From Patescibacteria group bacterium (GTDB lineage Bacteria > Patescibacteriota > Minisyncoccia > Minisyncoccales > CG1-02-41-26): a stretch of DNA of 56,672 nucleotides. The stretch lies in assembly GCA_023474835.1 (NCBI GenBank), contig JAMCXQ010000005.1, positions 1-56,672 of the forward strand. The letters run 5' to 3'. A program made the position numbers and the translations under genes. Below are positions 10,257 to 45,272 of this stretch, in pieces; the first letter of the stretch is position 1, and each line of letters starts with the position of its first letter. The notes under the pieces are model-generated. The model ran no database searches and was not told the origin of the DNA. It was given only the letters and a program-made list of their open reading frames with translations.

Positions 10257-10463
10257 ATATACAGGGGGTTTATTACAAGGGCATAGTTTGGTAAAATGAA
10301 TTTAGCGATTAAACACTGTTGCCGCGGACCGTCAAGGGGCGGCCGCGGAGACGGCGGAGAGGTTAAGAGGATGGTCAGAGAGCTTCCAACCAAACCGCCG
10401 TTTTATATTGCTCTATTTTCTTTTTCAATTATATTGCTATTTGGGCGCAGTTTGATAAAATAG

Positions 10464-10684
10464 AGAATGGCCTTGTCATCTAATGGGTCAAAGCCAACTG
10501 CTTGGCTTTGACGGGAATCTTAGAAAACTCTCCGAGTTTTCGTTAAGAAATTCCCCGGCACATTATGTTTAAGCCAACTGCTTGGCTTTGACGGCCGATT
10601 TAGGAAATCGTCCCCGATTTCCGTTAAAAATCGGCCAGGCATTCCTTAATTTATTACAATATCAGGTAGTGTTACGGTAAGAAT
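10464..10684 (+). repeat. tRNA-linked structured repeat: 23-nt copy of the tRNA-Glu 5' end followed by two hairpin-pair units
   Basis: 10464-10486 is identical to 10680-10702. HP1 GTCAAAGCCAA-CTGC-TTGGCTTTGAC is at 10487-10512, with a partial copy at 10571-10592. Two-tier hairpins HP2 are at 10513-10556 and 10593-10636, followed by AGGCATTCCTTAA. Confidence 0.75.
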
Positions 10685-10757
10685 GGCCTTGTCATCTAAT
10701 GGTTCAGGATACATGGTTCTCAACCATGTCATACGGGTTCGAATCCCGTCGAGGCCG
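10685..10757 (+). tRNA. tRNA-Glu (anticodon CTC)
   Basis: Acceptor GGCCTTG/CGAGGCC, anticodon arm CATGG-TTCTCAA-CCATG, T arm ACGGG-TTCGAAT-CCCGT. No encoded CCA. Confidence 0.85.
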
Positions 10758-10759
10758 CT

Positions 10760-12882: not shown

Positions 12883-15729
12883 CTAGTACCCCGCTTTATC
12901 CAGATTGCGAAAAGTGGCTCTTGTTTCGTCAAAGAACAGCTCTGCTTTGCCAATCGGCCCGTTTCTGTGCTTGGCAATTAAAATGTCCGCTACATTGGGT
13001 TTTTCCGAACTTTGTTTATAGCGGTCTTCTCTGTAAATAAACATCACCACGTCCGCATCCTGCTCGATTGAGCCCGATTCACGAAGGTCGGCCAATCTTG
13101 GTATTTGCGGCACTCTTTGTTCAACCGCCCGCGATAATTGCGACAAAACCAAAACCGGAATGCAAAGTTCCTTTGCCAGCGATTTCAACGCCCGCGAGTT
13201 TTCGCTCACCTGCTGAACCATGCCGTAGTTGGGATTTTGGCTGCGCGACTCCATTAACTGCAAGTAGTCAATAATCAAAAGCCCCAAGCCTTTGTCAGCC
13301 GCTAATCGCCGGGCCATTGCCCGCATTTGCAAAATGTTTGAGCTGGATATGTCGTCAATGTAAAGAGGGGATTCGGAAAGTTCGGCCATCGCTCTTTGTA
13401 TTCTTTCAAAATCATTGCCCATGCCCTGGTCCGATAATCGTCCGGTTCGCAAACGCCACAAATCAACGTCGGCCTGGCTGGCTATGAGGCGGTCAATAAT
13501 CTGGTCTTTTGACATTTCCAGGCTAAAAACGCCCACCGGTATTTTGTATTTGACAGCCACGTTGCGGGCGATATCAAGTGCCAGTGAAGAGTTATGAATG
13601 ATGAAGTCATTGGCAATAAAGTTATGATTTTCAGATACGGTCAGGTCATAAACCTGTTTTTCTCCGATTGGGGCAATAGCCGCTATTTTATCCCAATAAA
13701 TATCGCTTTGAGCGATGTCTATTAGCTCCGTAGAATTTAAAACATAAGCCAGCTTTAAGACAGTTTCTCTGCGAGGAGAACGCCGAAAGGCGTGAATGTT
13801 ATACGAGTCGGGCAAGTGGAGTTCTTTATAAACAGACCGCCAGCTCTTTTGGCCTTTTATTTCAGAGATTTTTTCCCAGATCTTAATCGGAATGGTGTCT
13901 TGCGCCCAGCCCTGTTTGGTTTTAGTTAAGTATTTTTCGGCTTTAACAATCTTCGCTTCCTCGCGATACATACCTATTTCTCGGATAAATTTTAAAAGGC
14001 TGGGGGCGTTCATAACTTCAAGTTCGTAGGCCGTAATCTTTTTTCCGTTGATTTTTGTTCTTTTCTCTCTGGTTTTGCTCAAAACTCCAAATCTCAAAAG
14101 TAAATGTTGCACCTGTTTAATGAGTCTGTATGATCCGGAGCTATAAGATAAACGATAGTATTTTTGTTTTTTGCTTTGCCAGAAACTTCCGTCGCAGGAA
14201 AATAATCGGTTTAAAAACAAGGCCAGCGATTTTTTATTTAATTCAAACACAGCTGAAGGAATGAATTTATCAATGGCGAGTTTGCCCATTAAACCAAACG
14301 ATTGCAGCCACGCATTAATCGAATTTTTGGGTGCCAGTTTTTCATATTGTTGCAAAAGATTCTGTCGCGCAGCATTATTTATTTGAAAACTATTTATAAT
14401 TGTCAGGAAATTTTCTTTTAACGGCAAATTATGTCCGTTAAGGAATGCTGAAATACCGGCAAGGCAAATTTTCGTCTGATTTGATAATGATTTTTGGGTA
14501 ATGCCTTTTTCTTGTAAAATCAGCTTTATCTTTTGTCCCAATTCTTTTATGCCCTGGCTATCTCTTTCTTTTGTTGAAGAAACCACATAAGTAAGGCATT
14601 TATTTTGGCCTCTTTTTTTGTCAGTTCTGACTTTAACATTGGGGAATTTGGCAATTGCCGACAGAAAATCTTTTTGGATTTTTATATTGCCATTAGTGAA
14701 AGCAGGGCAGCTTTCAGTTAATCCGCCCTCGGCAATAAAATAAGCCAGTGTCTTTATTTCATAATCCGGCCAGATTTTTTCCCCAAAAACAGGGATAACT
14801 CTTGGCACTCCGACTTTTTCTCCTACTCTGATTTCTGACAGTGGCTTCCATCCGTCTATTGTCAAAAATGGATGGGTAATGGTTGTTTCCACCTCTCTTC
14901 CTGATGCAGTTTTAACTTTGTAGACCGGTTGAATGCCATTATCTATGAAAGCGCTGGCTTGAGAGGGTGCTATTTTAAAATCTTTTCCTAAACTTAGGAT
15001 ATTTTGTTTTTTTTGTTTTACCACCTCTTCAATAGAACAGACACTTCCCGGGTTTGACATAACGATTTCTGTATCTTTACTAATACATTTTCCCATACTG
15101 GGCCTGGCAGCTAAAATTATCAAATCGGATTTTTGCAAGCCGGCCAAAGTGTTGTCCAGTTCCCGAAAGCCGGTAGGCAGGCCCCTCATTCCGCCTTTTT
15201 GCTTGTGCAGTTCTTCAATCCTGCGCCAGGTTTCTTCCAGGGTGTCTTTGACGTGCACGAATTTTTGGGTTAAGGAGCGCTGGGCAATGCCGAAAATCCG
15301 CTTTTCCGCTTCGTCAAGCAAACTGTCCACATCCTCGGCTTCTTTGTAAGCCAAATGGTTGATGTCTTGGGAAGCTGAAATCAAATCCCTTAAAATTCTT
15401 TTTTCCTGCACGATTTTGGCGTAGTTCAAAATGTGCGAGGCAGTGGGCACGGCGTTGACCAGTTCGGCGAGATAAGAGCCGCCGCCGATTTCCTGCAGCT
15501 GGTTTTTTTCTTTGAGTTCGCTTGTCAAACTCAAAAGGTCAATGGGCTCCCGTTTTTCAAAGAGGCCCTGCATCGCCCCGTAAATTTTCTGGTGGTGGTC
15601 TTTGTAAAAATCGCGAAAGGTCAAAAAATCAGCCACTTTCCAAATGGCGTCCGGGTCGATCATCAAGCACCCCAGCAACGATTTTTCCGCCTCAACGTTC
15701 TGGGGCGGCAGTTTTTCAGTCTCGGGCAT
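12883..15729 (-). CDS. dnaB: replicative DNA helicase DnaB, interrupted by an intein
   Basis: PPQNVEAEKSLLGCLM N-terminal domain. Walker A is split (LAARPSMGK|C...HN|S). C-terminal motifs are IIDYLQLM, LSQLSRAVEQR and AKHRNGP. Confidence 0.93.
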   Translation of the reverse strand: MPETEKLPPQNVEAEKSLLGCLMIDPDAIWKVADFLTFRDFYKDHHQKIYGAMQGLFEKREPIDLLSLTSELKEKNQLQEIGGGSYLAELVNAVPTASHILNYAKIVQEKRILRDLISASQDINHLAYKEAEDVDSLLDEAEKRIFGIAQRSLTQKFVHVKDTLEETWRRIEELHKQKGGMRGLPTGFRELDNTLAGLQKSDLIILAARPSMGKCISKDTEIVMSNPGSVCSIEEVVKQKKQNILSLGKDFKIAPSQASAFIDNGIQPVYKVKTASGREVETTITHPFLTIDGWKPLSEIRVGEKVGVPRVIPVFGEKIWPDYEIKTLAYFIAEGGLTESCPAFTNGNIKIQKDFLSAIAKFPNVKVRTDKKRGQNKCLTYVVSSTKERDSQGIKELGQKIKLILQEKGITQKSLSNQTKICLAGISAFLNGHNLPLKENFLTIINSFQINNAARQNLLQQYEKLAPKNSINAWLQSFGLMGKLAIDKFIPSAVFELNKKSLALFLNRLFSCDGSFWQSKKQKYYRLSYSSGSYRLIKQVQHLLLRFGVLSKTREKRTKINGKKITAYELEVMNAPSLLKFIREIGMYREEAKIVKAEKYLTKTKQGWAQDTIPIKIWEKISEIKGQKSWRSVYKELHLPDSYNIHAFRRSPRRETVLKLAYVLNSTELIDIAQSDIYWDKIAAIAPIGEKQVYDLTVSENHNFIANDFIIHNSSLALDIARNVAVKYKIPVGVFSLEMSKDQIIDRLIASQADVDLWRLRTGRLSDQGMGNDFERIQRAMAELSESPLYIDDISSSNILQMRAMARRLAADKGLGLLIIDYLQLMESRSQNPNYGMVQQVSENSRALKSLAKELCIPVLVLSQLSRAVEQRVPQIPRLADLRESGSIEQDADVVMFIYREDRYKQSSEKPNVADILIAKHRNGPIGKAELFFDETRATFRNLDKAGY
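13591..15087 (-). mobile_element. 499-aa intein with LAGLIDADG homing endonuclease, inserted in the DnaB P-loop
   Basis: It begins CISKDTEIV (residue 215) and has a TxxH block (TITHPF). LAGLIDADG-type blocks are LAYFIAEGGL and FLNRLFSCDGSF. It ends FIIHN followed by the +1 Ser (residue 714). Confidence 0.88.
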
Positions 15730-19893: not shown

Positions 19894-21000
19894 ATGCCAA
19901 ATTTAGTGTTATACCGCAAATATCGTCCTAAATTGTTCAGTGAAGTAATCGGCCAGGAGCATATTATAAAAACCCTTGAGGGCGCCATTTCCGAAGGGAT
20001 TTTTGGCCACGCTTATTTGTTTTCCGGGCCGCGGGGCTGCGGCAAAACAACTGTTGCGCGGCTTTTGGCAAAGGCGCTGAACTGCCAAAAAAGAAAATCG
20101 GGCGAATTTGAGCCTTGCAACCAGTGCGATTCTTGTTTGGAAATTTCAGAAGGCCGGGCCATTGATCTTATTGAAATTGACGCGGCAAGCAACCGGGGCA
20201 TTGACGAAATCAGGGAGTTGAAAGAAGGCATCAGGTTTTTGCCTGCCAAATCAAAATTCAAGGTGTTTATTTTGGACGAGGCGCACCAGCTTTCCAAAGA
20301 CGCCGCCAATGCCCTGCTCAAAACCCTGGAAGAGCCGCCCGGCCACGCCATTTTTATTTTAGCCACCACCGAGGCGAACAAAATGATTCCCACAATTTTG
20401 TCGCGCTGCCAGAAATTCGATTTCAGAAGATTGAAACTGGGGGAGATTGTCGGCCGCCTGGAAAGCATTTTGCAGCAGGAGAAAATAAAATTTGAAAAAG
20501 AGGCGCTGAGCTTAATTGCCGCTCACGCCGCCGGCTCAAGCCGCGACGCGGAGTCATTGCTTGACGAAGCGGTAAGTTTTTTCGGCCAGGACGGCTTGAT
20601 AACAAAAAAAGAAATCGAAGTTTTGCTGGGTTTGGCCGACATTGAAGCGGTTTTTAAGTTTATCGGGTTTTTAAGCCAGAAAAAAGCCAAAGAAGCCGTT
20701 GATTTCATAGCCGATTTGATGGAGCAGGGGATTGACATCAAAGAGTTTCTGCAAACCGTTATTATGTATTTCAGGGAAATTCTGCTTTTGCACATAGACG
20801 TTGGTTTTCAGGACGATTTGCTTTTCGGCTTGTCCGAGGAAGAAAAAGCAAAACTGCGCGATTTGGCAAAAAGTTTTTCCGAACAACAGACCAAGCAGAT
20901 TTTGGAAATTTTCACTGACGCGGAAAACAAAATGAAATACGCCACGATTTTGCAGCTTCCTTTGGAAATGGCGGTGGTTGAAATCTGTATTGAGAATTAA
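19894..21000 (+). CDS. dnaX: DNA polymerase III subunit gamma/tau (short form)
   Basis: LYRKYRPKLFSEVIGQEH, GPRGCGKTT, a Cys cluster (CQKRK..CNQCDSC), ILDEAHQL and SRCQKFDF. Confidence 0.9.
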   Translation: MPNLVLYRKYRPKLFSEVIGQEHIIKTLEGAISEGIFGHAYLFSGPRGCGKTTVARLLAKALNCQKRKSGEFEPCNQCDSCLEISEGRAIDLIEIDAASNRGIDEIRELKEGIRFLPAKSKFKVFILDEAHQLSKDAANALLKTLEEPPGHAIFILATTEANKMIPTILSRCQKFDFRRLKLGEIVGRLESILQQEKIKFEKEALSLIAAHAAGSSRDAESLLDEAVSFFGQDGLITKKEIEVLLGLADIEAVFKFIGFLSQKKAKEAVDFIADLMEQGIDIKEFLQTVIMYFREILLLHIDVGFQDDLLFGLSEEEKAKLRDLAKSFSEQQTKQILEIFTDAENKMKYATILQLPLEMAVVEICIEN

Positions 21001-21042
21001 GTAAAGTAGTTTGGTGCCGGTGTTTCGGATTTATCGTCGAAA

Positions 21043-21163
21043 TTGCCGGGTCGTCTAATGGGTCAAAGCCAACTACTTGGCTTTGACGGGCGATTTAGGA
21101 AATCGCCCCCGATTTCCATTAAAAATCGCCCAGGTCTTCCTTAAAAAGTTAGGCAAATTTATT
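21043..21163 (+). repeat. tRNA-linked structured repeat: 19-nt copy of the tRNA-Gln 5' end followed by a hairpin pair
   Basis: 21043-21061 is identical to 21163-21181. HP1 GTCAAAGCCAA-CTAC-TTGGCTTTGAC is at 21062-21087 and HP2 at 21088-21131, followed by AGGTCTTCCTTAA. Same family as 10464-10684. Confidence 0.75.
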
Positions 21164-21235
21164 TGCCGGGTCGTCTAATGGTAGGACGTCTCCCTTTGGA
21201 GGAGAATATTCTAGGTTCGAATCCTAGCCCGGCAG
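21164..21235 (+). tRNA. tRNA-Gln (anticodon TTG)
   Basis: Acceptor TGCCGGG/CCCGGCA (U1-A72, as in bacterial tRNA-Gln), anticodon arm TCTCC-CTTTGGA-GGAGA, T arm CTAGG-TTCGAAT-CCTAG. Confidence 0.85.
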
Positions 21236-21280
21236 CTGATAGAAAATCTTGTTGCGAAGCAACTTAGATTTTCATCATCC

Positions 21281-21406
21281 CGAACTGAAATTGTTTTAAA
21301 ATATTCAGAACAATTCGAAACCTTAAAACAAGCCAGACACCGTGAGGCTGAAATCAAAAGCTGGCGCCGCGAAAAGAAATTAGCGTTAATGAGTCATGGC
21401 AAATAG
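21281..21406 (+). pseudogene. C-terminal remnant of a GIY-YIG (UPF0213-like) nuclease gene
   Basis: Translates as RTEIVLKYSEQFETLKQARHREAEIKSWRREKKLALMSHGK*, which resembles only the last ~40 aa of small GIY-YIG proteins. There is no start codon or N-terminal GIY-YIG part. Its stop overlaps the MTase start. Confidence 0.45.
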
Positions 21407-22502
21407 TAATCTTACTAACGCGAAACAGGCAAAGAATGATGAGTTTTACACGCAATATGGCGATATTCAAAAAGAGATTGAGGCGTATTTGGAATTTAAC
21501 CCAAATGTATTTCGGGGCAGGGTTGTGTATTGCAACTGCGACGATCCGTTTGAAAGCAATTTTTTTCGCTATTTTACGCTTAATTTCAACAAGCTTGGCT
21601 TAAAACAGCTTATTACCACAAGCTACAAGCCCTCGCCCGTAGCCAACACGCAACTGAAATTGTTTGGCGATGATAAAACCCTTACAAAATCAAAGGGCCG
21701 CCCCAAGATAACCGCCAATAAATTTATTATCAATGAAGTAGCTGATATGGACAGCGATGGCGATTTTGATTTAAAGGACATTGCCAAGCAGTTAAAGGCG
21801 AATAAGCACAATGAATGGACGCCGCTTGAGAAAGACGGCGATTTTAGAAGTTCCGAATGCGTAAAATTATTGAAGCAATCAGACATCGTGGTAACAAATC
21901 CGCCGTTTAGTTTGTTTCGTGAATACGTGAAACAACTTATTGAGTATAATAAAAAGTTTGTGATTATCGGCAACAAAAATTGCGTGACATACAAGGAAAT
22001 TTTCCCATTGATTAAAGACAACAAAATGTGGTCTGGCAAAACAGAATGGTCTGGCGGGTTATGGTTCGTAACCATGGATGATGGCGATGTAGATAAAGTA
22101 GTCAATGGCGTTAATATGAAGAATGTGTCTTCTGTTTGGTTTACCAACATAGACCACGGCAGGCGGCATCAGCCATTGCCGCTTATGACAATGGAAGAAA
22201 ATTTGAAATACAGCAAACACAAAGAAATTCAAGGCAAATCGTCGTATGACAAATATGACAACTACGACGCCATAGAAGTGCCCTTTACTGACGCTATCCC
22301 AAGCGATTATAGCGGCGTAATGGGTGTGCCCATCAGTTTTTTGGATAAATATAGCCCCGAACAATTTGAGATTGTTGGGATGGCAGAGGATAATGGCAAA
22401 GGTTTCTCTGGCGGAATTTGGGACGGCAAAAATCCTCACTGTGTCATAAACGGAGAAAATAAGTTCAAGCGAATTTTTATTAAGCATAAGAAAGTTAAGT
22501 AA
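21396..22502 (+). CDS. N6-adenine DNA methyltransferase, EcoRI-methylase-like family
   Basis: N-terminal KNDEFYTQY, catalytic IVVTNPPFSLF (NPPF), and no adjacent restriction endonuclease recognised. Confidence 0.75.
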   Translation: MANSNLTNAKQAKNDEFYTQYGDIQKEIEAYLEFNPNVFRGRVVYCNCDDPFESNFFRYFTLNFNKLGLKQLITTSYKPSPVANTQLKLFGDDKTLTKSKGRPKITANKFIINEVADMDSDGDFDLKDIAKQLKANKHNEWTPLEKDGDFRSSECVKLLKQSDIVVTNPPFSLFREYVKQLIEYNKKFVIIGNKNCVTYKEIFPLIKDNKMWSGKTEWSGGLWFVTMDDGDVDKVVNGVNMKNVSSVWFTNIDHGRRHQPLPLMTMEENLKYSKHKEIQGKSSYDKYDNYDAIEVPFTDAIPSDYSGVMGVPISFLDKYSPEQFEIVGMAEDNGKGFSGGIWDGKNPHCVINGENKFKRIFIKHKKVK

Positions 22503-22508
22503 AAAAAT

Positions 22509-23018
22509 ATGGCAACAAAAAGACAAGTTTTTTACAGTTTTCATTACAAACCAGATTGTTGGCGAGCTTCCCAAGTTCGAAATATTGGAGCCATTGAAGG
22601 GAATAAACCAGCACCTGATAATGATTGGGAAACTATTATAAGAAGTGGCGATGACGCTATTAAAAAATGGATTAAAGATCAAATGAAATACCGATCATGC
22701 ACGGTTGTGCTTGTCGGCGAAAATACTGCTAATCGCAAATGGATAAATCATGAAATAGTTGAATCATGGAATGCAGGAATGGGAGTTGTTGGAATTTGTA
22801 TTCATGGTTTAAAAAATCAAGATGGATATATTGCAAATCAAGGACATGATCCATTCAATTACATTACATATGGCGATAGCGGTAAAAAATTATCATCAAT
22901 AGTAAAATGTTATAATCCGTCAGGAAGTAATAGTAAAGAAAGATATGATTGGATTTATCAATATATTTCTGATGCTGTTGAAGAAGCTATAAGAATTAGA
23001 AATAATTATTCAAAATAA
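22509..23018 (+). CDS. TIR-like protein (DUF1863/ThsB-type)
   Basis: RQVFYSFHYKPDCWRASQVRN, TVVLVGENTANRKWINHEIVESW and GVVGICIHGLKN, a pattern I associate with ThsB-type TIR-like domains. Confidence 0.7.
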   Translation: MATKRQVFYSFHYKPDCWRASQVRNIGAIEGNKPAPDNDWETIIRSGDDAIKKWIKDQMKYRSCTVVLVGENTANRKWINHEIVESWNAGMGVVGICIHGLKNQDGYIANQGHDPFNYITYGDSGKKLSSIVKCYNPSGSNSKERYDWIYQYISDAVEEAIRIRNNYSK

Positions 23019-23021
23019 AAT

Positions 23022-23459
23022 ATGGAAAATCCAACTGAATACAAACATTGTCCAAATAAAATTGCACACTTGCAGATGATTCAAGGTGTTATTGATCGTA
23101 TGGCCGGAAATTTATTTTATCTAAGGGGGTGGGCGATTACGCTACTTGCTGGGCTTTTTGCCATTTCTACTTCGGAAGCGTTAAGCCTCGCAAAGTGGGT
23201 TCCGTTATTATTTTTTGTTTTATTGATTTTATTTTGGATTTATGACGGATATTTTCTTTCTTTGGAGCGTAAATTTAGAGGTTTATATGATAAGATTAGG
23301 AAATTTCCGGAAGAGGAAATTGATTTTTCAATGAATATTGGAGAATTTAAAACTCATGCTGACAAAACGATGTTTGCTACAATATTATCTCCGACGCTAT
23401 TAGGATTTTACGGCATTCTAAGTTTGGCTATGCTGGTAATTATTAAATTTATTTTATAA
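23022..23459 (+). CDS. small membrane protein (3 predicted helices), candidate effector
   Basis: Hydrophobic helices lie at about aa 36-56, 59-78 and 119-143, with a charged linker SLERKFRGLYDKIRKFPEEEIDF. It is embedded between the two TIR-like genes with 3-nt and 1-nt gaps. Confidence 0.65.
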   Translation: MENPTEYKHCPNKIAHLQMIQGVIDRMAGNLFYLRGWAITLLAGLFAISTSEALSLAKWVPLLFFVLLILFWIYDGYFLSLERKFRGLYDKIRKFPEEEIDFSMNIGEFKTHADKTMFATILSPTLLGFYGILSLAMLVIIKFIL

Positions 23460-23460
23460 A

Positions 23461-24135
23461 ATGGCAAGAAAAATTTTCATTAGCTATAAATACGGAGATA
23501 CCGGCGTTCAACATATACCGCGCTATGGCGAATATGATGCAACGACAGCACGACATTATGTTGATGTTTTGCAAACAAAATTGGATGTGGCAGATCATAT
23601 CAATAAAGGGGAAAACGACGGCGAGGATATGAGTAAGTTTAAGGACGAAACGATAGAATCAAATTTGAGAAATAAAATTTTTGACAGTTCAATTACGATT
23701 GTCCTGATATCTAAAAATATGAAAGACCCCTATCTTGCCGAGGATGACCAGTGGATTCCTTGGGAAATTGCATACTCAATGAAAGAAATTACGCGCAACG
23801 GAAGAACAAGCGGAACAAATGCGATGCTAGCCGTCGTCCTCCCTGATGAGAATGGAAATTATTCGTATGTTGTAAATCACTATCAATGCGTAACTGTTTG
23901 GAATGTCGCATCTTTGTTTAAAATTATAGAAAGCAATATGTTTAATCGAAATCAGAAAAATTTAATTCGCTGCGTAACCTGCGGCGGTATTCATCATACA
24001 GGACAAGACCATTCATATATTCATCCAGTCAAATGGTGCGACTTCATTATTAACATTGATGGATATCTTAATCATGTTATTGGGCATCAAAGTAATCTTG
24101 ATAGTTTTGATATTGTAAAAGAAATAACGCATTAA
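23461..24135 (+). CDS. second TIR-like protein with Cys/His-rich C-terminal part
   Basis: ARKIFISYKYGD, ITIVLISKNMKD, QWIPWEIAYSM and a C-terminal CVTCGGIHHTGQDHSYIHPVKWCDF. Confidence 0.6.
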   Translation: MARKIFISYKYGDTGVQHIPRYGEYDATTARHYVDVLQTKLDVADHINKGENDGEDMSKFKDETIESNLRNKIFDSSITIVLISKNMKDPYLAEDDQWIPWEIAYSMKEITRNGRTSGTNAMLAVVLPDENGNYSYVVNHYQCVTVWNVASLFKIIESNMFNRNQKNLIRCVTCGGIHHTGQDHSYIHPVKWCDFIINIDGYLNHVIGHQSNLDSFDIVKEITH

Positions 24136-24145
24136 TTAAAAAAAT

Positions 24146-24199
24146 ATGAAAGCAATTTTAAAAAGCGACACTACTGTTAAAGATATTTGCGAGGGGTGA
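24146..24199 (+). pseudogene. 17-codon remnant of a DUF262-type gene start
   Basis: MKAILKSDTTVKDICEG* compared with [18 protein letters not shown] at 24930; 42 of 52 nt are identical by hand alignment. It starts 10 nt after the TIR gene stop. Confidence 0.6.
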
Positions 24200-24297
24200 A
24201 AATTATAGGCAATGGCGGGATTAAGTTGGAAAATTGAACTACCGAGGAATCCTCGGTAGTTCAAAAAACTTCGAATAAATTAGTTGAATAATAAGTT

Positions 24298-24699
24298 ATG
24301 GAGAAAGAAAATTATAAAAAAGAGTTTGATAAATGGAATATCCAAAAAAAGATTACTCACAATAGTGAAAATAAAAAAACTTTTCACGAACAAGAAATTT
24401 GGTTTATTAAAATTGGCGAGAATATTGGTTTTGAACAAGACGGAAAGGGCGAGGATTTTTTAAGGCCAGTTATTGTTTACAAAAAATTTTCAAAAAATGT
24501 TTTTTTGGGCATACCTTTAACAAAAGCAATAAAAGAAAATAAGTTTTATAAGGTATTTGATTTTCATGGAGAAAAAAGCAATGCAATTCTGTCGCAAATA
24601 AGACTTTTTGATTCAAAGAGATTAAAATATAAAATTGGAAAAATGAGTTCTGTTGATTTTGCTTCTGTAAAAGAAAAACTCATCCAGTTGATTAGATGA
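24298..24699 (+). CDS. MazF/PemK-like toxin, no adjacent antitoxin gene seen
   Basis: EIWFIKIGENIGFEQDGKGEDFLRPVIVYKKF..FLGIPLTKAIKE..AILSQIRLFDSKRL fits the PemK/MazF family pattern. Confidence 0.65.
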   Translation: MEKENYKKEFDKWNIQKKITHNSENKKTFHEQEIWFIKIGENIGFEQDGKGEDFLRPVIVYKKFSKNVFLGIPLTKAIKENKFYKVFDFHGEKSNAILSQIRLFDSKRLKYKIGKMSSVDFASVKEKLIQLIR

Positions 24700-24786
24700 G
24701 TTTTCCCTGTTTTTACTCCCCATAAGGGGAGAGAGTCCTAATGGACATTTATATTGTAATATTACCATATTTTAAAGTTAAAAGTC

Positions 24787-24907
24787 AATAGTAGGACTTA
24801 CGCGTTTGGGCATTTTTTCTCAAAAATCGCGTGAAATATGGCCTTATTTCGTGGCCTCATTGCACAAAAAATGGCTAAAACTGGCCAAACGCGTAAGTCC
24901 TAAATAG
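24787..24907. mobile_element. MITE-like element: 18-bp perfect terminal inverted repeats with 5-bp AATAG flanking duplication
   Basis: TAGGACTTACGCGTTTGG (24792-24809) and CCAAACGCGTAAGTCCTA (24885-24902) enclose a 75-nt non-coding core. AATAG occurs at 24787-24791 and again at 24903-24907. Confidence 0.55.
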
Positions 24908-24929
24908 TTTAAAAAAGTGAAAAAACAAT

Positions 24930-26099
24930 ATGAAAACGATTTTAAAAACCAATATTACCGTTAGAGAAATTTGCGACGGGTTTGTTTATAACGAGCTTGA
25001 GGGCAAAGGCTTGTTTGGCTTGTCTGGCAAATTGACTATTCAGCCGGAATATCAACGCAACTATATCTATGCTTCCGATGGGGGCAAAAAAGAAATTGCT
25101 GTTATTGGCTCAATTCTTAAGGGCTATCCAATTGGCTTAATTTATTTTAATAAGGTTTCTGAAAATAACCTGGAAGTTTTAGACGGGCAACAACGGATTA
25201 CCAGCTTAGGGCGGTTTATAACCGATAAATTTGCCATTAAAGATGCAAACAATATGGAGCAATATTTTAATGGTATGGCGAAAGACAAACAAGCCAAAAT
25301 TTTGGAAACCAAACTTTTGATTTACGAATGCGAAGGCACGGAAAGCGAGATAAAAGAATGGTTTAAAACGATTAATATTGCCGGCGTGCCGCTTAATAAT
25401 CAGGAATTGCTTAATGCTGTTTATTCTGGGCCGTTTGTAACGCTCGGCAAAGAAGAGTTTAGCAACAGCCAAAACGCCAATATCCAGAAATGGAGCGCCT
25501 ATATATCGGGCAGCGCTAACCGGCAGGACTTTTTGGAACGCGCTTTGGATTGGGTAAGCAAAGGAAATATCGGGGACTATATGAGCCACCATCGTTTTGA
25601 TAAAAATATCACTGAGCTCAAAAAATATTTCAACAGCGTGATTGATTGGGTTTCTGCTATATTTATTGATGTGGAAAGCGAGATGCGCGGGCTGGAATGG
25701 GGCAGATTATACGAACAGTATCATAAGAAAGCGTATGACCCCGTCAAAGTCTCAGCCGAAGTGCAAAAGCTTTACGCTGATCCGTATGTAAAAAATCGCA
25801 GGGGGATTTTTGAGTATATTCTCGGCGGTTCCGTTGACACGAAATTGCTTGATGTTAGAGTTTTTGACGAAGCAACCAAGAAAGCTGTTTATACAACGCA
25901 AACTGCTGCGGCCGGAAAGAAAGAAAAGTCAAACTGCCCGCATTGCGCCATTGGGCACGACGCCAACAAGAGCAAAATTTGGAGTTTTGGTGAAATGGAC
26001 GCCGATCACGTAGCGGCCTGGAGCAAGGGAGGCGCAACTACAGCTAAGAATTGTCAGATGCTTTGCAAGACACATAATCGAGCGAAAGGTAATCGATAA
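24930..26099 (+). CDS. DUF262 (ParB/GmrSD-N-like) plus HNH nuclease fusion protein
   Basis: [16 protein letters not shown] (the DGQQR motif of DUF262). C-terminal [31 protein letters not shown] is an HNH motif. Confidence 0.75.
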
Positions 26100-44565: not shown

Positions 44566-44593
44566 TTGACATTTGTAGTAAATTTATTACACT
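44566..44593 (+). promoter_or_regulatory. near-consensus promoter with near-palindromic operator-like spacer
   Basis: TTGACA (44566-44571), a 16-nt spacer and TACACT (44588-44593). The spacer GTAGTAAATTTATTAC is nearly palindromic. The ATG at 44599 lies about where the transcription start would fall. Confidence 0.5.
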
Positions 44594-44598
44594 TGATT

Positions 44599-44934
44599 AT
44601 GAAAGTTAGTTTGAGAGAAATACGCAATTATCAAACCGTATCAAACGATATTCCGTTCAGAGAGTGGTTATTTTCGCTCAAAGACAAAAAAGCTCGTGCC
44701 GCAATTTATGCGCGGATTGACCGTTTACGTCAGGGAGATTTCGGCGATTATAAAAGTTTGGGAGGGGAGATAAATGAATTAAGAATCCACTACGGCTCCG
44801 GTTTCCGTCTTTACTTTGGCGAATTGGGGCATACGATTATCATTTTGCTTTGCGGTGGAGCCAAAAAGTCGCAAAAACGCGACATAAAAAGAGCCGAAGA
44901 ATACTGGCAAGACTTTAAAAATCGCAATTTATGA
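44599..44934 (+). CDS. higB: RelE/ParE-superfamily addiction module killer protein (HigB-like)
   Basis: IPFREWLFSLKDKKARAAIYARIDRLRQGDFGDYKSLGGEINELRIHYGSGFRLYF..IIILLCGGAKKSQKRDI. Confidence 0.8.
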   Translation: MKVSLREIRNYQTVSNDIPFREWLFSLKDKKARAAIYARIDRLRQGDFGDYKSLGGEINELRIHYGSGFRLYFGELGHTIIILLCGGAKKSQKRDIKRAEEYWQDFKNRNL

Positions 44935-45272
44935 ACAAAAAATTATACAACAGAATATTAAGAAACACCGCCAGCTATCAGGAAATGTTCACAAATGACT
45001 TGAAAGATAAAGAGTTCGCCCGAATTTATCTTGAAGCCGCTTTTGGAGAATATCAAAAAGACGGCAACACCAATGCTTTGTTATTGGCGATGAAAGATGT
45101 GGCTCAAGCTCAGGGCGGAGTTGGCAAGTTAGCTAAAAAAACCACTATCAGTCGTGAACATCTTTACGATATTTTGGCGAGTAAACATAACCCTCGTTTG
45201 GACAATTGGCTGAATATTATTTTAGGACTCGGTTTTCGTATTCGTTTGGAATCGCAAGATGCCGTTGTTTAA
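44931..45272 (+). CDS. higA: addiction module antidote protein, HigA-type HTH
   Basis: The ATGA overlap with the toxin gene, plus YLEAAFGEYQKDGNTNALLLAMKDVAQAQGGVGKLAKKTTISREHLYDIL. Confidence 0.8.
   Translation: MNKKLYNRILRNTASYQEMFTNDLKDKEFARIYLEAAFGEYQKDGNTNALLLAMKDVAQAQGGVGKLAKKTTISREHLYDILASKHNPRLDNWLNIILGLGFRIRLESQDAVV

Follow-up and report, generated by a model that had tools for sequence, protein, structure and literature searches.

A structured, tRNA-gene-associated repeat family of CPR bacteria and its possible mobility

Upstream of the tRNA-Gln gene of a Patescibacteria group bacterium (contig JAMCXQ010000005.1, positions 1 to 56,672; this whole 56.7-kb stretch is what we call the window) there is a module of about 75 bases that folds into two hairpins and encodes no protein, and that is preceded by a copy of the 5′ end of the very tRNA that follows it. 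On sequence grounds, the module is a member of a structured, tRNA-gene-associated repeat family of bacteria of the Candidate Phyla Radiation (CPR), so far undescribed. Our favored reading, to which we give a probability of about one half, is that it is a small non-autonomous mobile element with an unusual target. The mechanism we propose is that a strand-specific hairpin element would insert 3′ of the dinucleotide RG with a variable target duplication, that only those events in tRNA genes that rebuild the gene would survive, and that the survivors would be transcribed in the leader of the precursor tRNA. A previous reading of the window, made from its letters without database searches (the sequence-only reading), had noticed the repeat and its hairpins. 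That observation is confirmed, and its main inferences are supported now that many more copies have been examined.

Three modules at two tRNA genes

The window has only two tRNA genes, for Gln and Glu, and the module is found at both. At the tRNA-Gln locus (21043–21236) the features, where HP1 and HP2 are the first and second hairpins and the stub is the truncated upstream copy of the tRNA, are these:

20978–21007, + strand: promoter-like TTGAAA-18-TAAAGT upstream of the stub; weak, with one consensus match against 0.8 expected in shuffles
21043–21061, + strand: left direct repeat TTGCCGGGTCGTCTAATGG, a 19-nt pseudo-copy of tRNA-Gln (from −1 to G19) with the D-loop GG at its end; 19/19 identical to 21163–21181
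21062–21087, + strand: HP1 (GTCAAAGCCAA-CTAC-TTGGCTTTGAC), an 11-bp stem with a 4-nt loop; from the fold and the covariation among variant copies
21088–21131, + strand: HP2, with a 9-bp outer stem (GGGCGATTT/AAATCGCCC), a single A, and an 8-bp inner hairpin with a CCCC loop
21132–21144, + strand: conserved tail AGGTCTTCCTTAA, nearly identical in the Glu module; its TTCCTTAA part is common to the related stretch L122
21145–21162, + strand: A/T-rich, locus-specific spacer of 18 nt that holds the left arm of a palindrome
21163–21181, + strand: right direct repeat, identical in sequence to the left one, which is the 5′ end of the intact tRNA-Gln
21164–21236, + strand: intact tRNA-Gln(TTG) by ARAGORN (Rfam ends it at 21235; Rfam tRNA score 65 bits)

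The sequence-only reading had given this layout as repeat, HP1, HP2, tail and tRNA, and all that it says of the sequence is correct at the coordinates it gives. The Gln module scores 92 bits (21062–21135) with the covariance model introduced below. Its HP2 has an unpaired 3′ bulge of 5 nt, ATTAA, where the family consensus is GTTAA. As a separate observation, the spacer and the first bases of tRNA-Gln form a perfect palindrome, GGCAAAT-TT-ATTTGCC (21152–21167), and its counterpart at the tRNA-Gln of another related stretch (L130, 14094–14109) reads GGCAATT-TT-AATTGCC, a compensatory change.

The tRNA-Glu locus (10434–10758) has the same layout but with two modules in tandem:

10434–10461, + strand: promoter-like TTGCTA-16-TAAAAT with an extended TG, directly 5′ of the tRNA-Glu stub
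10464–10486, + strand: left direct repeat AGAATGGCCTTGTCATCTAATGG, a 23-nt pseudo-copy of tRNA-Glu from −5 to G19; 23/23 identical to 10680–10702
10487–10559, + strand: module a (HP1a 10487–10512, HP2a 10513–10556); 79.9 bits with the covariance model
10567–10649, + strand: module b (degenerate HP1b 10567–10592, HP2b 10593–10636, tail AGGCATTCCTTAA 10637–10649); 86.5 bits
10650–10679, + strand: locus-specific spacer, whose similarity to the tRNA body is not significant
10680–10758, + strand: right direct repeat (10680–10702), running into the intact tRNA-Glu(CTC) at 10685–10758; from ARAGORN, Rfam and sequence identity

HP2a keeps the architecture of HP2 with a different sequence. Across the window there are three HP1 sequences, if up to 3 mismatches are allowed, and two HP2 cores; shuffled sequence has neither.

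The promoter-like site of the Glu locus ends 7 nt before position +1 of the stub, and a promoter-consensus scan of the locus finds no such site ahead of the intact tRNA-Glu. This indicates that the stub marks the original start of the gene, and that the module lies in the leader of the precursor tRNA. As for the spacer, it does not align significantly as a decayed tRNA body at any of the three modules of the window (p = 0.34–0.98), while in other loci such alignments are significant. When the stub is artificially spliced to the sequence downstream, ARAGORN just pairs the stub again with the intact tRNA.

A family with a conserved fold on one strand

How widespread is this arrangement? We scanned 185,579 species genomes with an HP1 pattern and obtained 77 stretches, and HP1 is followed by HP2 only in 11 metagenome-assembled genomes (MAGs), which belong to Saccharibacteria, Paceibacterota, Gribaldobacteria, Sungiibacteriota and Giovannonibacteria or are unclassified “bacterium” bins. 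A scan of metagenomes added 57 stretches, 4 of them chance matches. (The labels L005–L132 denote the related stretches from the two scans.) Once identical copies are dropped, 50 distinct ones are left, all in Patescibacteria/CPR MAGs or metagenomes. A covariance model built from 29 copies (alignment A1, model R1) recovered all of these together with variants in which the HP1 stem is different yet fully compensated: GTCAAAGGCAA/TTGCCTTTGAC, GTCGAAGTCAA/TTGACTTCGAC, GTTTGAGACAA/TTGTCTCAAAC and ATTGAAACGAA/TTCGTTTCAAT. Thus, the seeming invariance of HP1 is partly a product of the search pattern. Many copies also have a third hairpin, of the type GGGGTTTTGCC-GAGG-GGCAAAAC, which the copies of the window do not have.

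The family does not match anything that we could find described. In Rfam 15 there is no match with E ≤ 10 over the Gln module (20950–21300) and none with E ≤ 0.5 in those related loci that were searched by E-value. The Rfam matches at gathering score are tRNAs only, besides a 16S rRNA and a group I intron in two related loci. The module has no match among viral contigs, phage records or plasmid records. Full-text literature searches, on the module sequence and on tRNA repeats or introns of CPR bacteria, turned up nothing of relevance.

One resemblance lies outside the CPR. Helicobacter sp. 11S02596-1 has a repeat of about 150 nt in multiple copies (L005, L020, L027, L032, L037, L042), which is also present once in each of two related Campylobacterota MAGs (L038, L057). 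It has no Rfam match, and it holds essentially the 22-nt hairpin of HP1, with the loop mostly in the opposite orientation (GCAG). It may be kin to the CPR module, or the likeness may be a coincidence.

In an alignment of 48 copies, 93.4% of the cells assigned to pairs are paired, and 25 of the 28 base pairs show double-sided changes. None of 500 shuffles reaches the observed pairing and covariation, and in a control in which partners are slid by 1–3 columns the pairing falls to 31–50%. Covariation extends to all nine pairs of the outer stem of HP2. It was in this stem that the sequence-only reading had seen a paired G/C to C/G swap between two copies of the window, and the swap is real (the pair is GC in 37 copies, CG in 5 and AU in 1). 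It is one of many in the alignment. With the compensated HP1 variants added to the double-sided changes and the shuffles, the claim that the structure is under selection stands. The inner hairpin is nearly free in sequence. What is kept there is the hairpin itself, a TCC-containing loop, and the unpaired GTTAA, often with a symmetric internal loop of tandem G·A pairs (GCGA.../...GAGC).

The mismatches tell us about the strand. There are 46 of the G·A/A·G kind and only about 2 of the C·T type, and there are 22 G·U pairs and 12 A·C. The contrast between G·U and A·C is by itself weakly informative, and that between G·A and C·T is the stronger strand evidence. The excess of G·A over C·T assigns the fold to the tRNA-sense strand.

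A junction in the D-loop

The dinucleotide that precedes HP1 is GG in 33 of 41 copies, AG in 6 and GA in 2. In the tRNA-linked copies, the sequence before HP1 is the 5′ part of a tRNA that ends at G18G19 of the D-loop. We observe this junction for tRNA-Gln, Glu, Ser (twice), Asn, Val, Ile, Ala, Gly, Trp and Arg, and at least 10 tRNA identities are involved altogether. Among 42 copies with enough sequence, 18 have a tRNA starting on the same strand 60–330 nt after HP1, compared with a background of 0.0275 in the same loci. The junction is thus as site-specific as had been claimed from the window alone. On the other hand, the D-loop ending TCTAATGG, which both loci of the window share, is not the target as such, since the D-loops before the junction vary (TCTAATGG, AGAGTGG, CAATGG, CAATTGG, and others) and the endings AGTGG, AATGG and AATTGG are used too.

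Some copies are found away from the 5′ part of a tRNA. Several precede a protein-coding gene and share its orientation. In L122 the module is inverted beside the 3′ end of tRNA-Gly, with a repeat of 12–13 nt, and in L087/L111 it is antisense in the spacer between 16S and tRNA-Ile, with a repeat of 15–17 nt. Duplication is therefore seen outside tRNA genes as well. (L087 also has a group I intron match of 63 bits by its 16S rRNA gene, at 1102–1536 on the − strand, in an rRNA-operon region where two HP modules lie.)

Young and old copies of the tRNA 5′ part

The stub is a copy of the tRNA gene next to it, and the copies form a series of different ages. In the window the repeats are exact (19 nt for Gln; 23 nt for Glu, of which 5 nt precede the tRNA). 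L130, another tRNA-Gln locus, has 19 of 20 aligned positions identical, with one gap. The repeat of L080 keeps 25 of 30 aligned positions with one gap, flank included, and that of L096 keeps 38 of 42, of which 24 nt are flank. At the tRNA-Ala of L127 an exact 19-nt repeat is accompanied by similarity that extends to about 50 nt upstream. At the other end of the series are decayed stubs, with 12/18 positions in L078, 13/18 in L099, and similar values in L118 and L108. In the decayed copies the complementarity of the acceptor part is lost, which argues that the stub is not under selection. The duplication lengths are ~0, 12–13, 15–17, 19, 20, 23, 30, 42 and ~55 nt, and every tRNA-associated repeat spans from the junction to just beyond the gene terminus.

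Is the stub then just the remnant of a chance tandem duplication of a tRNA, followed by unrelated filler? The upstream copy really is a partial tandem duplication, and in some loci the flank is duplicated too. But what lies between the copies is a conserved and covarying family with about 50 members, which share one junction at many different tRNAs across several CPR phyla, and we regard this explanation as refuted.

Another thought is that stub and hairpins together make a guide RNA of the IscB or Cas9 type, in which a 5′ guide and a scaffold steer a nuclease or a transposase to the tRNA gene. A match of 19–23 nt to the adjoining tRNA gene does stand directly 5′ of a hairpin scaffold, and the boundary between match and scaffold is fixed. 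However, the match runs on into up to 24–50 nt of flank (L096, L127), varies in length from 12 to at least 42 nt, and in older copies has decayed without constraint. The Glu stub has the native promoter ahead of it at the right spacing, as the original start of a gene would and an imported guide would not. There is no effector gene near the copies, and no Rfam match of the omega-RNA or tracrRNA type. The guide RNA reading is largely refuted by these observations, and we consider it very improbable.

A few loci present the mirror image. In L083, L092, L109 and a second copy in L096, the intact tRNA comes first, then a composite insert (about 230 nt) with the module in it, and then a repeat of 18–23 nt that goes from the T-loop (C56/R57) to the 3′ end of the tRNA. 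The insert also carries an inverted copy of the local T-arm. G19 and C56, where the two kinds of junction lie, pair with each other at the elbow of the tRNA, which we mention as a coincidence and do not count as evidence.

These loci bring to mind attachment sites. The module could be one arm of a miniature element without an integrase, akin to a cis-mobilizable element (CIME), which a tyrosine or serine recombinase would act on in trans and which would carry a replacement 5′ part for the tRNA. As in islands that integrate into tRNA genes, the direct repeat always starts at the junction and stops a little beyond the end of the gene. The mirror-image loci have a T-loop-to-3′-end repeat, HP1 is a 26-bp dyad (11+4+11) with the shape of a recombinase site, the dinucleotide at the junction is GG, and a defence island adjoins the tRNA-Gln of the window. 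What makes this reading unlikely to us is that at least 10 tRNAs have purely local repeats, flank included, such that the copy carried on the element's own site (attP) would need to be re-acquired for each target. Moreover, the units are just ~100–200 bp, no integrase is found in the window or recurs in ~45 loci, a duplex recombinase site does not need a strand-specific fold with G·A mismatches, and the loop and stem of HP1 both vary.

A putative mobile hairpin and how it would insert

We favor mobility because several features of the family look like signs of it. There are tandem arrays (in L119 and at the Glu locus of the window), the family is dispersed over CPR phyla, and many copies are at contig ends. 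The module has two insertion points within copies of one composite element, and modules that are 99% identical occur at tRNA-Ser and tRNA-Gly loci of the same samples. The precise rule at the 5′ junction and the flanking duplications of ~0 to ~55 nt speak for mobility too.

From these observations, we infer a series of steps. The module would be mobile, or would have been so recently, and it would be moved by a factor encoded elsewhere. Its 5′ end would be joined directly 3′ of RG, mostly G18G19 of a tRNA D-loop, and the insertion would duplicate a stretch of target on the 5′ side that varies from ~0 to ~55 nt. A single-copy tRNA gene would stay intact only if the duplication passes the 5′ end of the gene, so that the survivors would have the order promoter, stub of tRNA positions 1–19, module, spacer, intact tRNA. 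The native promoter would then transcribe stub, module and tRNA as one precursor, from which RNase P would release the tRNA. The stub would decay neutrally, and the hairpins would be kept on the tRNA-sense strand for propagation or for use in the leader. Possible chemistries are a staggered break of which one end is precise and the other loose, or a repair-type copying. Selection acting on a variable duplication would explain why the repeats always reach just past the tRNA terminus.

Why non-autonomous? None of the proteins of the window is a transposase, an integrase or a reverse transcriptase. In an all-versus-all BLASTP comparison of the open reading frames within ±3 kb of ~45 loci, no protein family recurs in more than 3 loci, and those recurring in up to 3 are orthologous neighborhoods. 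Since no neighbor family recurs and the window has no mobility gene, the module would depend on others to move.

Points against mobility, and what else could explain the family

Several observations weigh against the mobile reading. One is that a mobilizing enzyme is found neither in the window nor near the ~45 loci. Besides, mutation by template switching at a quasi-palindrome could mimic part of the covariation. A different difficulty comes from L051 (836–1034), L114 (8134–8330) and L079 (2434–2633), where a larger composite of about 200 nt, with perfect inverted repeats of 16–17 nt at its ends (AAGTTAATTTCAAGGAG/CTCCTTGAAATTAACTT, with a compensatory change in L114), contains the module. 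The module is placed at two different points within this composite and has no long duplication there, so the long repeats at tRNA genes could stem from a separate rescue event and not from the chemistry of insertion.

There are also loci in which the tRNA copy does not end at the module. In L096, L078, L126, L108 and L080 the pseudo-copy resumes after the module (tRNA positions ~21 to 33–40, with identities such as 12/12, 13/13, 15/16 and 13/14), breaks in or near the anticodon loop, and is followed by flank and the intact tRNA. This is not what one would expect of a simple target-site duplication. In L082 (983–1271) the 7-bp acceptor stem and the T-arm of an outer tRNA-Arg are perfect, and its 3′ part is kept. 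This outer gene is interrupted after the D-loop GGG by a module, a complete second tRNA-Arg, and another hairpin. In L059 and L106 an outer tRNA-Gly-like gene keeps its 3′ part beyond a nested intact tRNA. The module interrupts the D-loop of the outer gene and the nested tRNA-Gly interrupts its anticodon loop:

L106 7084–7350: nested locus with intact outer acceptor and T arms
L059 ~843–1060, − strand: nested locus, likewise with intact outer acceptor and T arms

ARAGORN miscalls or misses the outer tRNA genes of the nested loci. Between L059 and L106 the outer halves and the module are ~99% identical, the nested tRNA ~75%, and the coding flanks ~85%. For a module kept so much better than its flanks, host selection or gene conversion is as good an explanation as recent mobility. 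The variable-duplication proposal leaves both the resumed pseudo-copies and the nested loci unexplained.

There is also a subfamily (L080, L099, L101, L118, L126, L132) in which the sequences flanking the module, TAGCGAAGTGG and CGGAAGAGCG, are constant whatever the local tRNA, and would close the module by a GCGA/GAGC stem. Two of its members, L118 (3505–3578) and L132 (3862–3935), come from almost identical genomes and differ by six changes inside HP2, including both sides of one pair, but the 180 nt before HP2 are unchanged and the next 100 nt have only ~2 changes. The differences could reflect either a local mutation hot spot or gene conversion.

Could the module be like an intron, inserted in the D-loop of tRNA genes that are disrupted but still expressed, the intact tRNA being a later retro-copy or partial duplication that relieves the disruption? 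The outer tRNA-Arg of L082, the contrast between ~99% and ~75% in L059/L106, the five loci with resumed pseudo-copies, and a closing D-stem that turns into GCGA/GAGC in one subfamily all go in this direction. But the stubs of the window have no 3′ continuation that could be an exon and the intact tRNA comes directly after, most outer copies are cut off at the anticodon loop and decayed, and modules also occur outside tRNAs. We saw no splicing signal or enzyme, though no systematic search for bulge-helix-bulge motifs was made. We find this reading quite improbable.

A bolder version of it would be a bacterial system of disrupted and nested tRNA genes, in which outer genes cut at the elbow (after G19, or at C56) are expressed and mature by excision of the module or by assembly of the pieces, and which spreads through an RNA intermediate that recognizes the folded elbow. 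It would be a counterpart of the archaeal mobile tRNA introns or a SINE-like retroelement. To this scenario we give only a small chance.

The serious rival is that the module is a host-selected RNA part of the leaders of precursor tRNAs and of some mRNAs, with a role in processing, stability or regulation, or as a small RNA released by RNase P. It would have spread with tRNA loci through duplication and gene conversion, leaving the stub as a by-product, and is compatible with a mobile origin. The sense-strand fold, with its conserved GTTAA bulge, TCC-containing loop and tandem G·A pairs, would suit an RNA with a function, and so would the constant co-orientation with the downstream tRNA, the promoter-like site upstream of the stub, and the copies ahead of protein-coding genes in the same orientation. 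In the orthologous pairs L059/L106, L099/L102 and L101/L126 the module is much better conserved than the flanks. And yet one copy is antisense in an rRNA operon spacer, one is inverted relative to its tRNA, and the acceptor part of the stub decays while keeping complementarity to nothing. Rfam holds no known family or ligand-type architecture for the module, and the changes confined to HP2 in L118/L132 are unlike simple purifying selection. Finally, the copy number, the tandem arrays, the contig ends and the differing insertion points in the composite favor mobility. We thus take the host-leader role to be possible and clearly less probable than a mobile element.

Comparison with known elements

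If the module is mobile, which known class does it resemble? The repetitive extragenic palindromes (REPs), with their mosaic (BIME) and paired (REPIN) forms mobilized by the RAYT enzymes of the HUH type, come close: they are short, non-coding, gene-free intergenic hairpins in many copies that covary, are strand-specific, and occur as mosaics and tandems. Like them, our module is a short, highly repeated intergenic palindrome (~50 copies with covarying hairpins). Unlike them, it is flanked by repeats of 12–42 nt (possibly ~55) at tRNA genes and in an rRNA spacer, and its 5′ tetranucleotide is GTCA/GTYR instead of the GTAG type. There is no RAYT gene in the window or near ~45 loci. We know of no REPs in tRNA D-loops or flanked by target duplications of 12–55 nt.

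Bacterial miniature inverted-repeat transposable elements (Correia/NEMIS, RUP, Nezha, Chunjie) are likewise small, non-autonomous, structured, co-transcribed with their neighbors, and flanked by direct repeats. However, the module lacks terminal inverted repeats (it goes from GTCAAAGCC... to ...GCAAATTTAT, or to ...ACGGTA at the Glu locus). Their duplication is of fixed length (2–10 bp) and the module's is long and variable, and the module is sequence-specific at its 5′ junction only.

The islands and CIMEs that integrate into tRNA genes share with the module the tRNA target, the repeat from the crossover to past the gene end, and the regeneration of an intact tRNA, as well as the T-loop cases in related loci. 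The differences are that the module duplicates the 5′ part of the tRNA, breaks in the D-loop, is only ~100–200 bp, and has no adjacent integrase. A CIME has few targets, for which it carries an identity block at its attP. Here, at least 10 tRNA identities are used and each repeat is local.

Elements of the IS200/IS605 family and palindrome-associated transposable elements (PATEs) recall the module in their orientation bias, in having strand-specific hairpins and lacking terminal inverted repeats, and in inserting 3′ of a short, specific sequence. But they make no target duplication and use a fixed target of 4–5 nt, whereas the module has duplications and a rule that is just RG. Nor do we see for the module a matching right-end hairpin rule, and HP1 abuts the junction. 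No TnpA or TnpB gene is near any copy.

Long target duplications that vary from copy to copy do exist elsewhere. IS1634 and IS1549 make them, and are kilobase-sized DDE elements with inverted repeats. Retroposons of the LINE/SINE kind, which use target-primed reverse transcription, also make long and variable target duplications, with one precise junction and small deletions. The module is like both in its duplication, and like the retroposons in having one precise junction. To our knowledge, no bacterial SINE-like element or associated reverse transcriptase has been reported.

Lastly, the archaeal mobile tRNA introns and disrupted tRNA genes (Thermoproteales, Nanoarchaeum; also Cyanidioschyzon) are related structured sequences at non-canonical positions of many tRNAs, the D-loop among them, and the nested and disrupted genes of L082 and L059/L106 recall them. 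Those introns interrupt the only functional copy of a gene and have a bulge-helix-bulge motif at their boundaries. In the window an intact tRNA follows the truncated stub, and the host is a bacterium.

Implications for CPR genomes

CPR genomes are tiny and their tRNA genes are mostly single-copy, so an element that lands in tRNA genes without breaking them is unexpected. If the mobile reading is right, a small non-coding element would be using the most conserved sequence of the cell as a safe and always transcribed landing site, with an insertion chemistry unlike the known bacterial classes in its long, variable duplication and single precise junction. The module would put a strong structure of ~100–200 nt into precursor tRNA leaders, which bears on RNase P processing in CPR bacteria. 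It is also a compact lineage marker for the CPR, and the covariance model could be used for a census.

There are practical consequences as well. The module breaks assemblies, and the tRNA-like stubs and nested tRNA genes that it makes confuse tRNA and tmRNA (transfer-messenger RNA) finders. As an example, ARAGORN reports a permuted tmRNA in L041 (3872–4280, tag GGPYECSHAG) that overlaps the module beside tRNA-Val. The stub followed by GAC-GGG resembles a tmRNA 5′ end, and the call is probably false, made from tRNA-like fragments and GAC-GGG. As an identity for the module, tmRNA was rejected because the copies are numerous, because the tRNA identity differs from locus to locus, and because the tag is implausible.

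Neighboring genes in the window

Right after tRNA-Gln the window changes character:

21396–26099: defence cluster with an EcoRI-like methyltransferase, two ThsB-TIR proteins, a MazF/PemK toxin and a GmrSD-HNH protein

The GC content is 0.30–0.37 across this region and 0.44–0.46 upstream. The sequence-only reading took the locus to mark the left edge of a defence island. The defence genes and the drop in GC do start right after tRNA-Gln, and it is plausible that the tRNA is an island border. We see no evidence that ties the module to the island: there is no integrase and no repeat of the 3′ part of tRNA-Gln anywhere in the window, and the module is on the other side of the tRNA, so their closeness is best taken as a coincidence of position only.

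Between tRNA-Gln and the methyltransferase gene, whose start it overlaps, is the remnant of the C-terminus of a small GIY-YIG protein, UPF0213-like (21281–21406, + strand, ending in ...EIVLKYSEQFETLKQARHREAEIKSWRREKKLALMSHGK*), with a weak Pfam GIY-YIG match (E = 0.12). As a whole, the window is ordinary CPR chromosome, including PBP2, MraZ/MraW, RmuC, RecR, DnaB with an intein, CysRS, DnaX and ATP synthase. The replicative helicase DnaB (12883–15729, − strand) is split by an intein with LAGLIDADG and helix-turn-helix domains, and at 44566–45272 there is a toxin-antitoxin-like pair, formed by a Gp49/DUF891 protein and an HI1420-type antidote protein.

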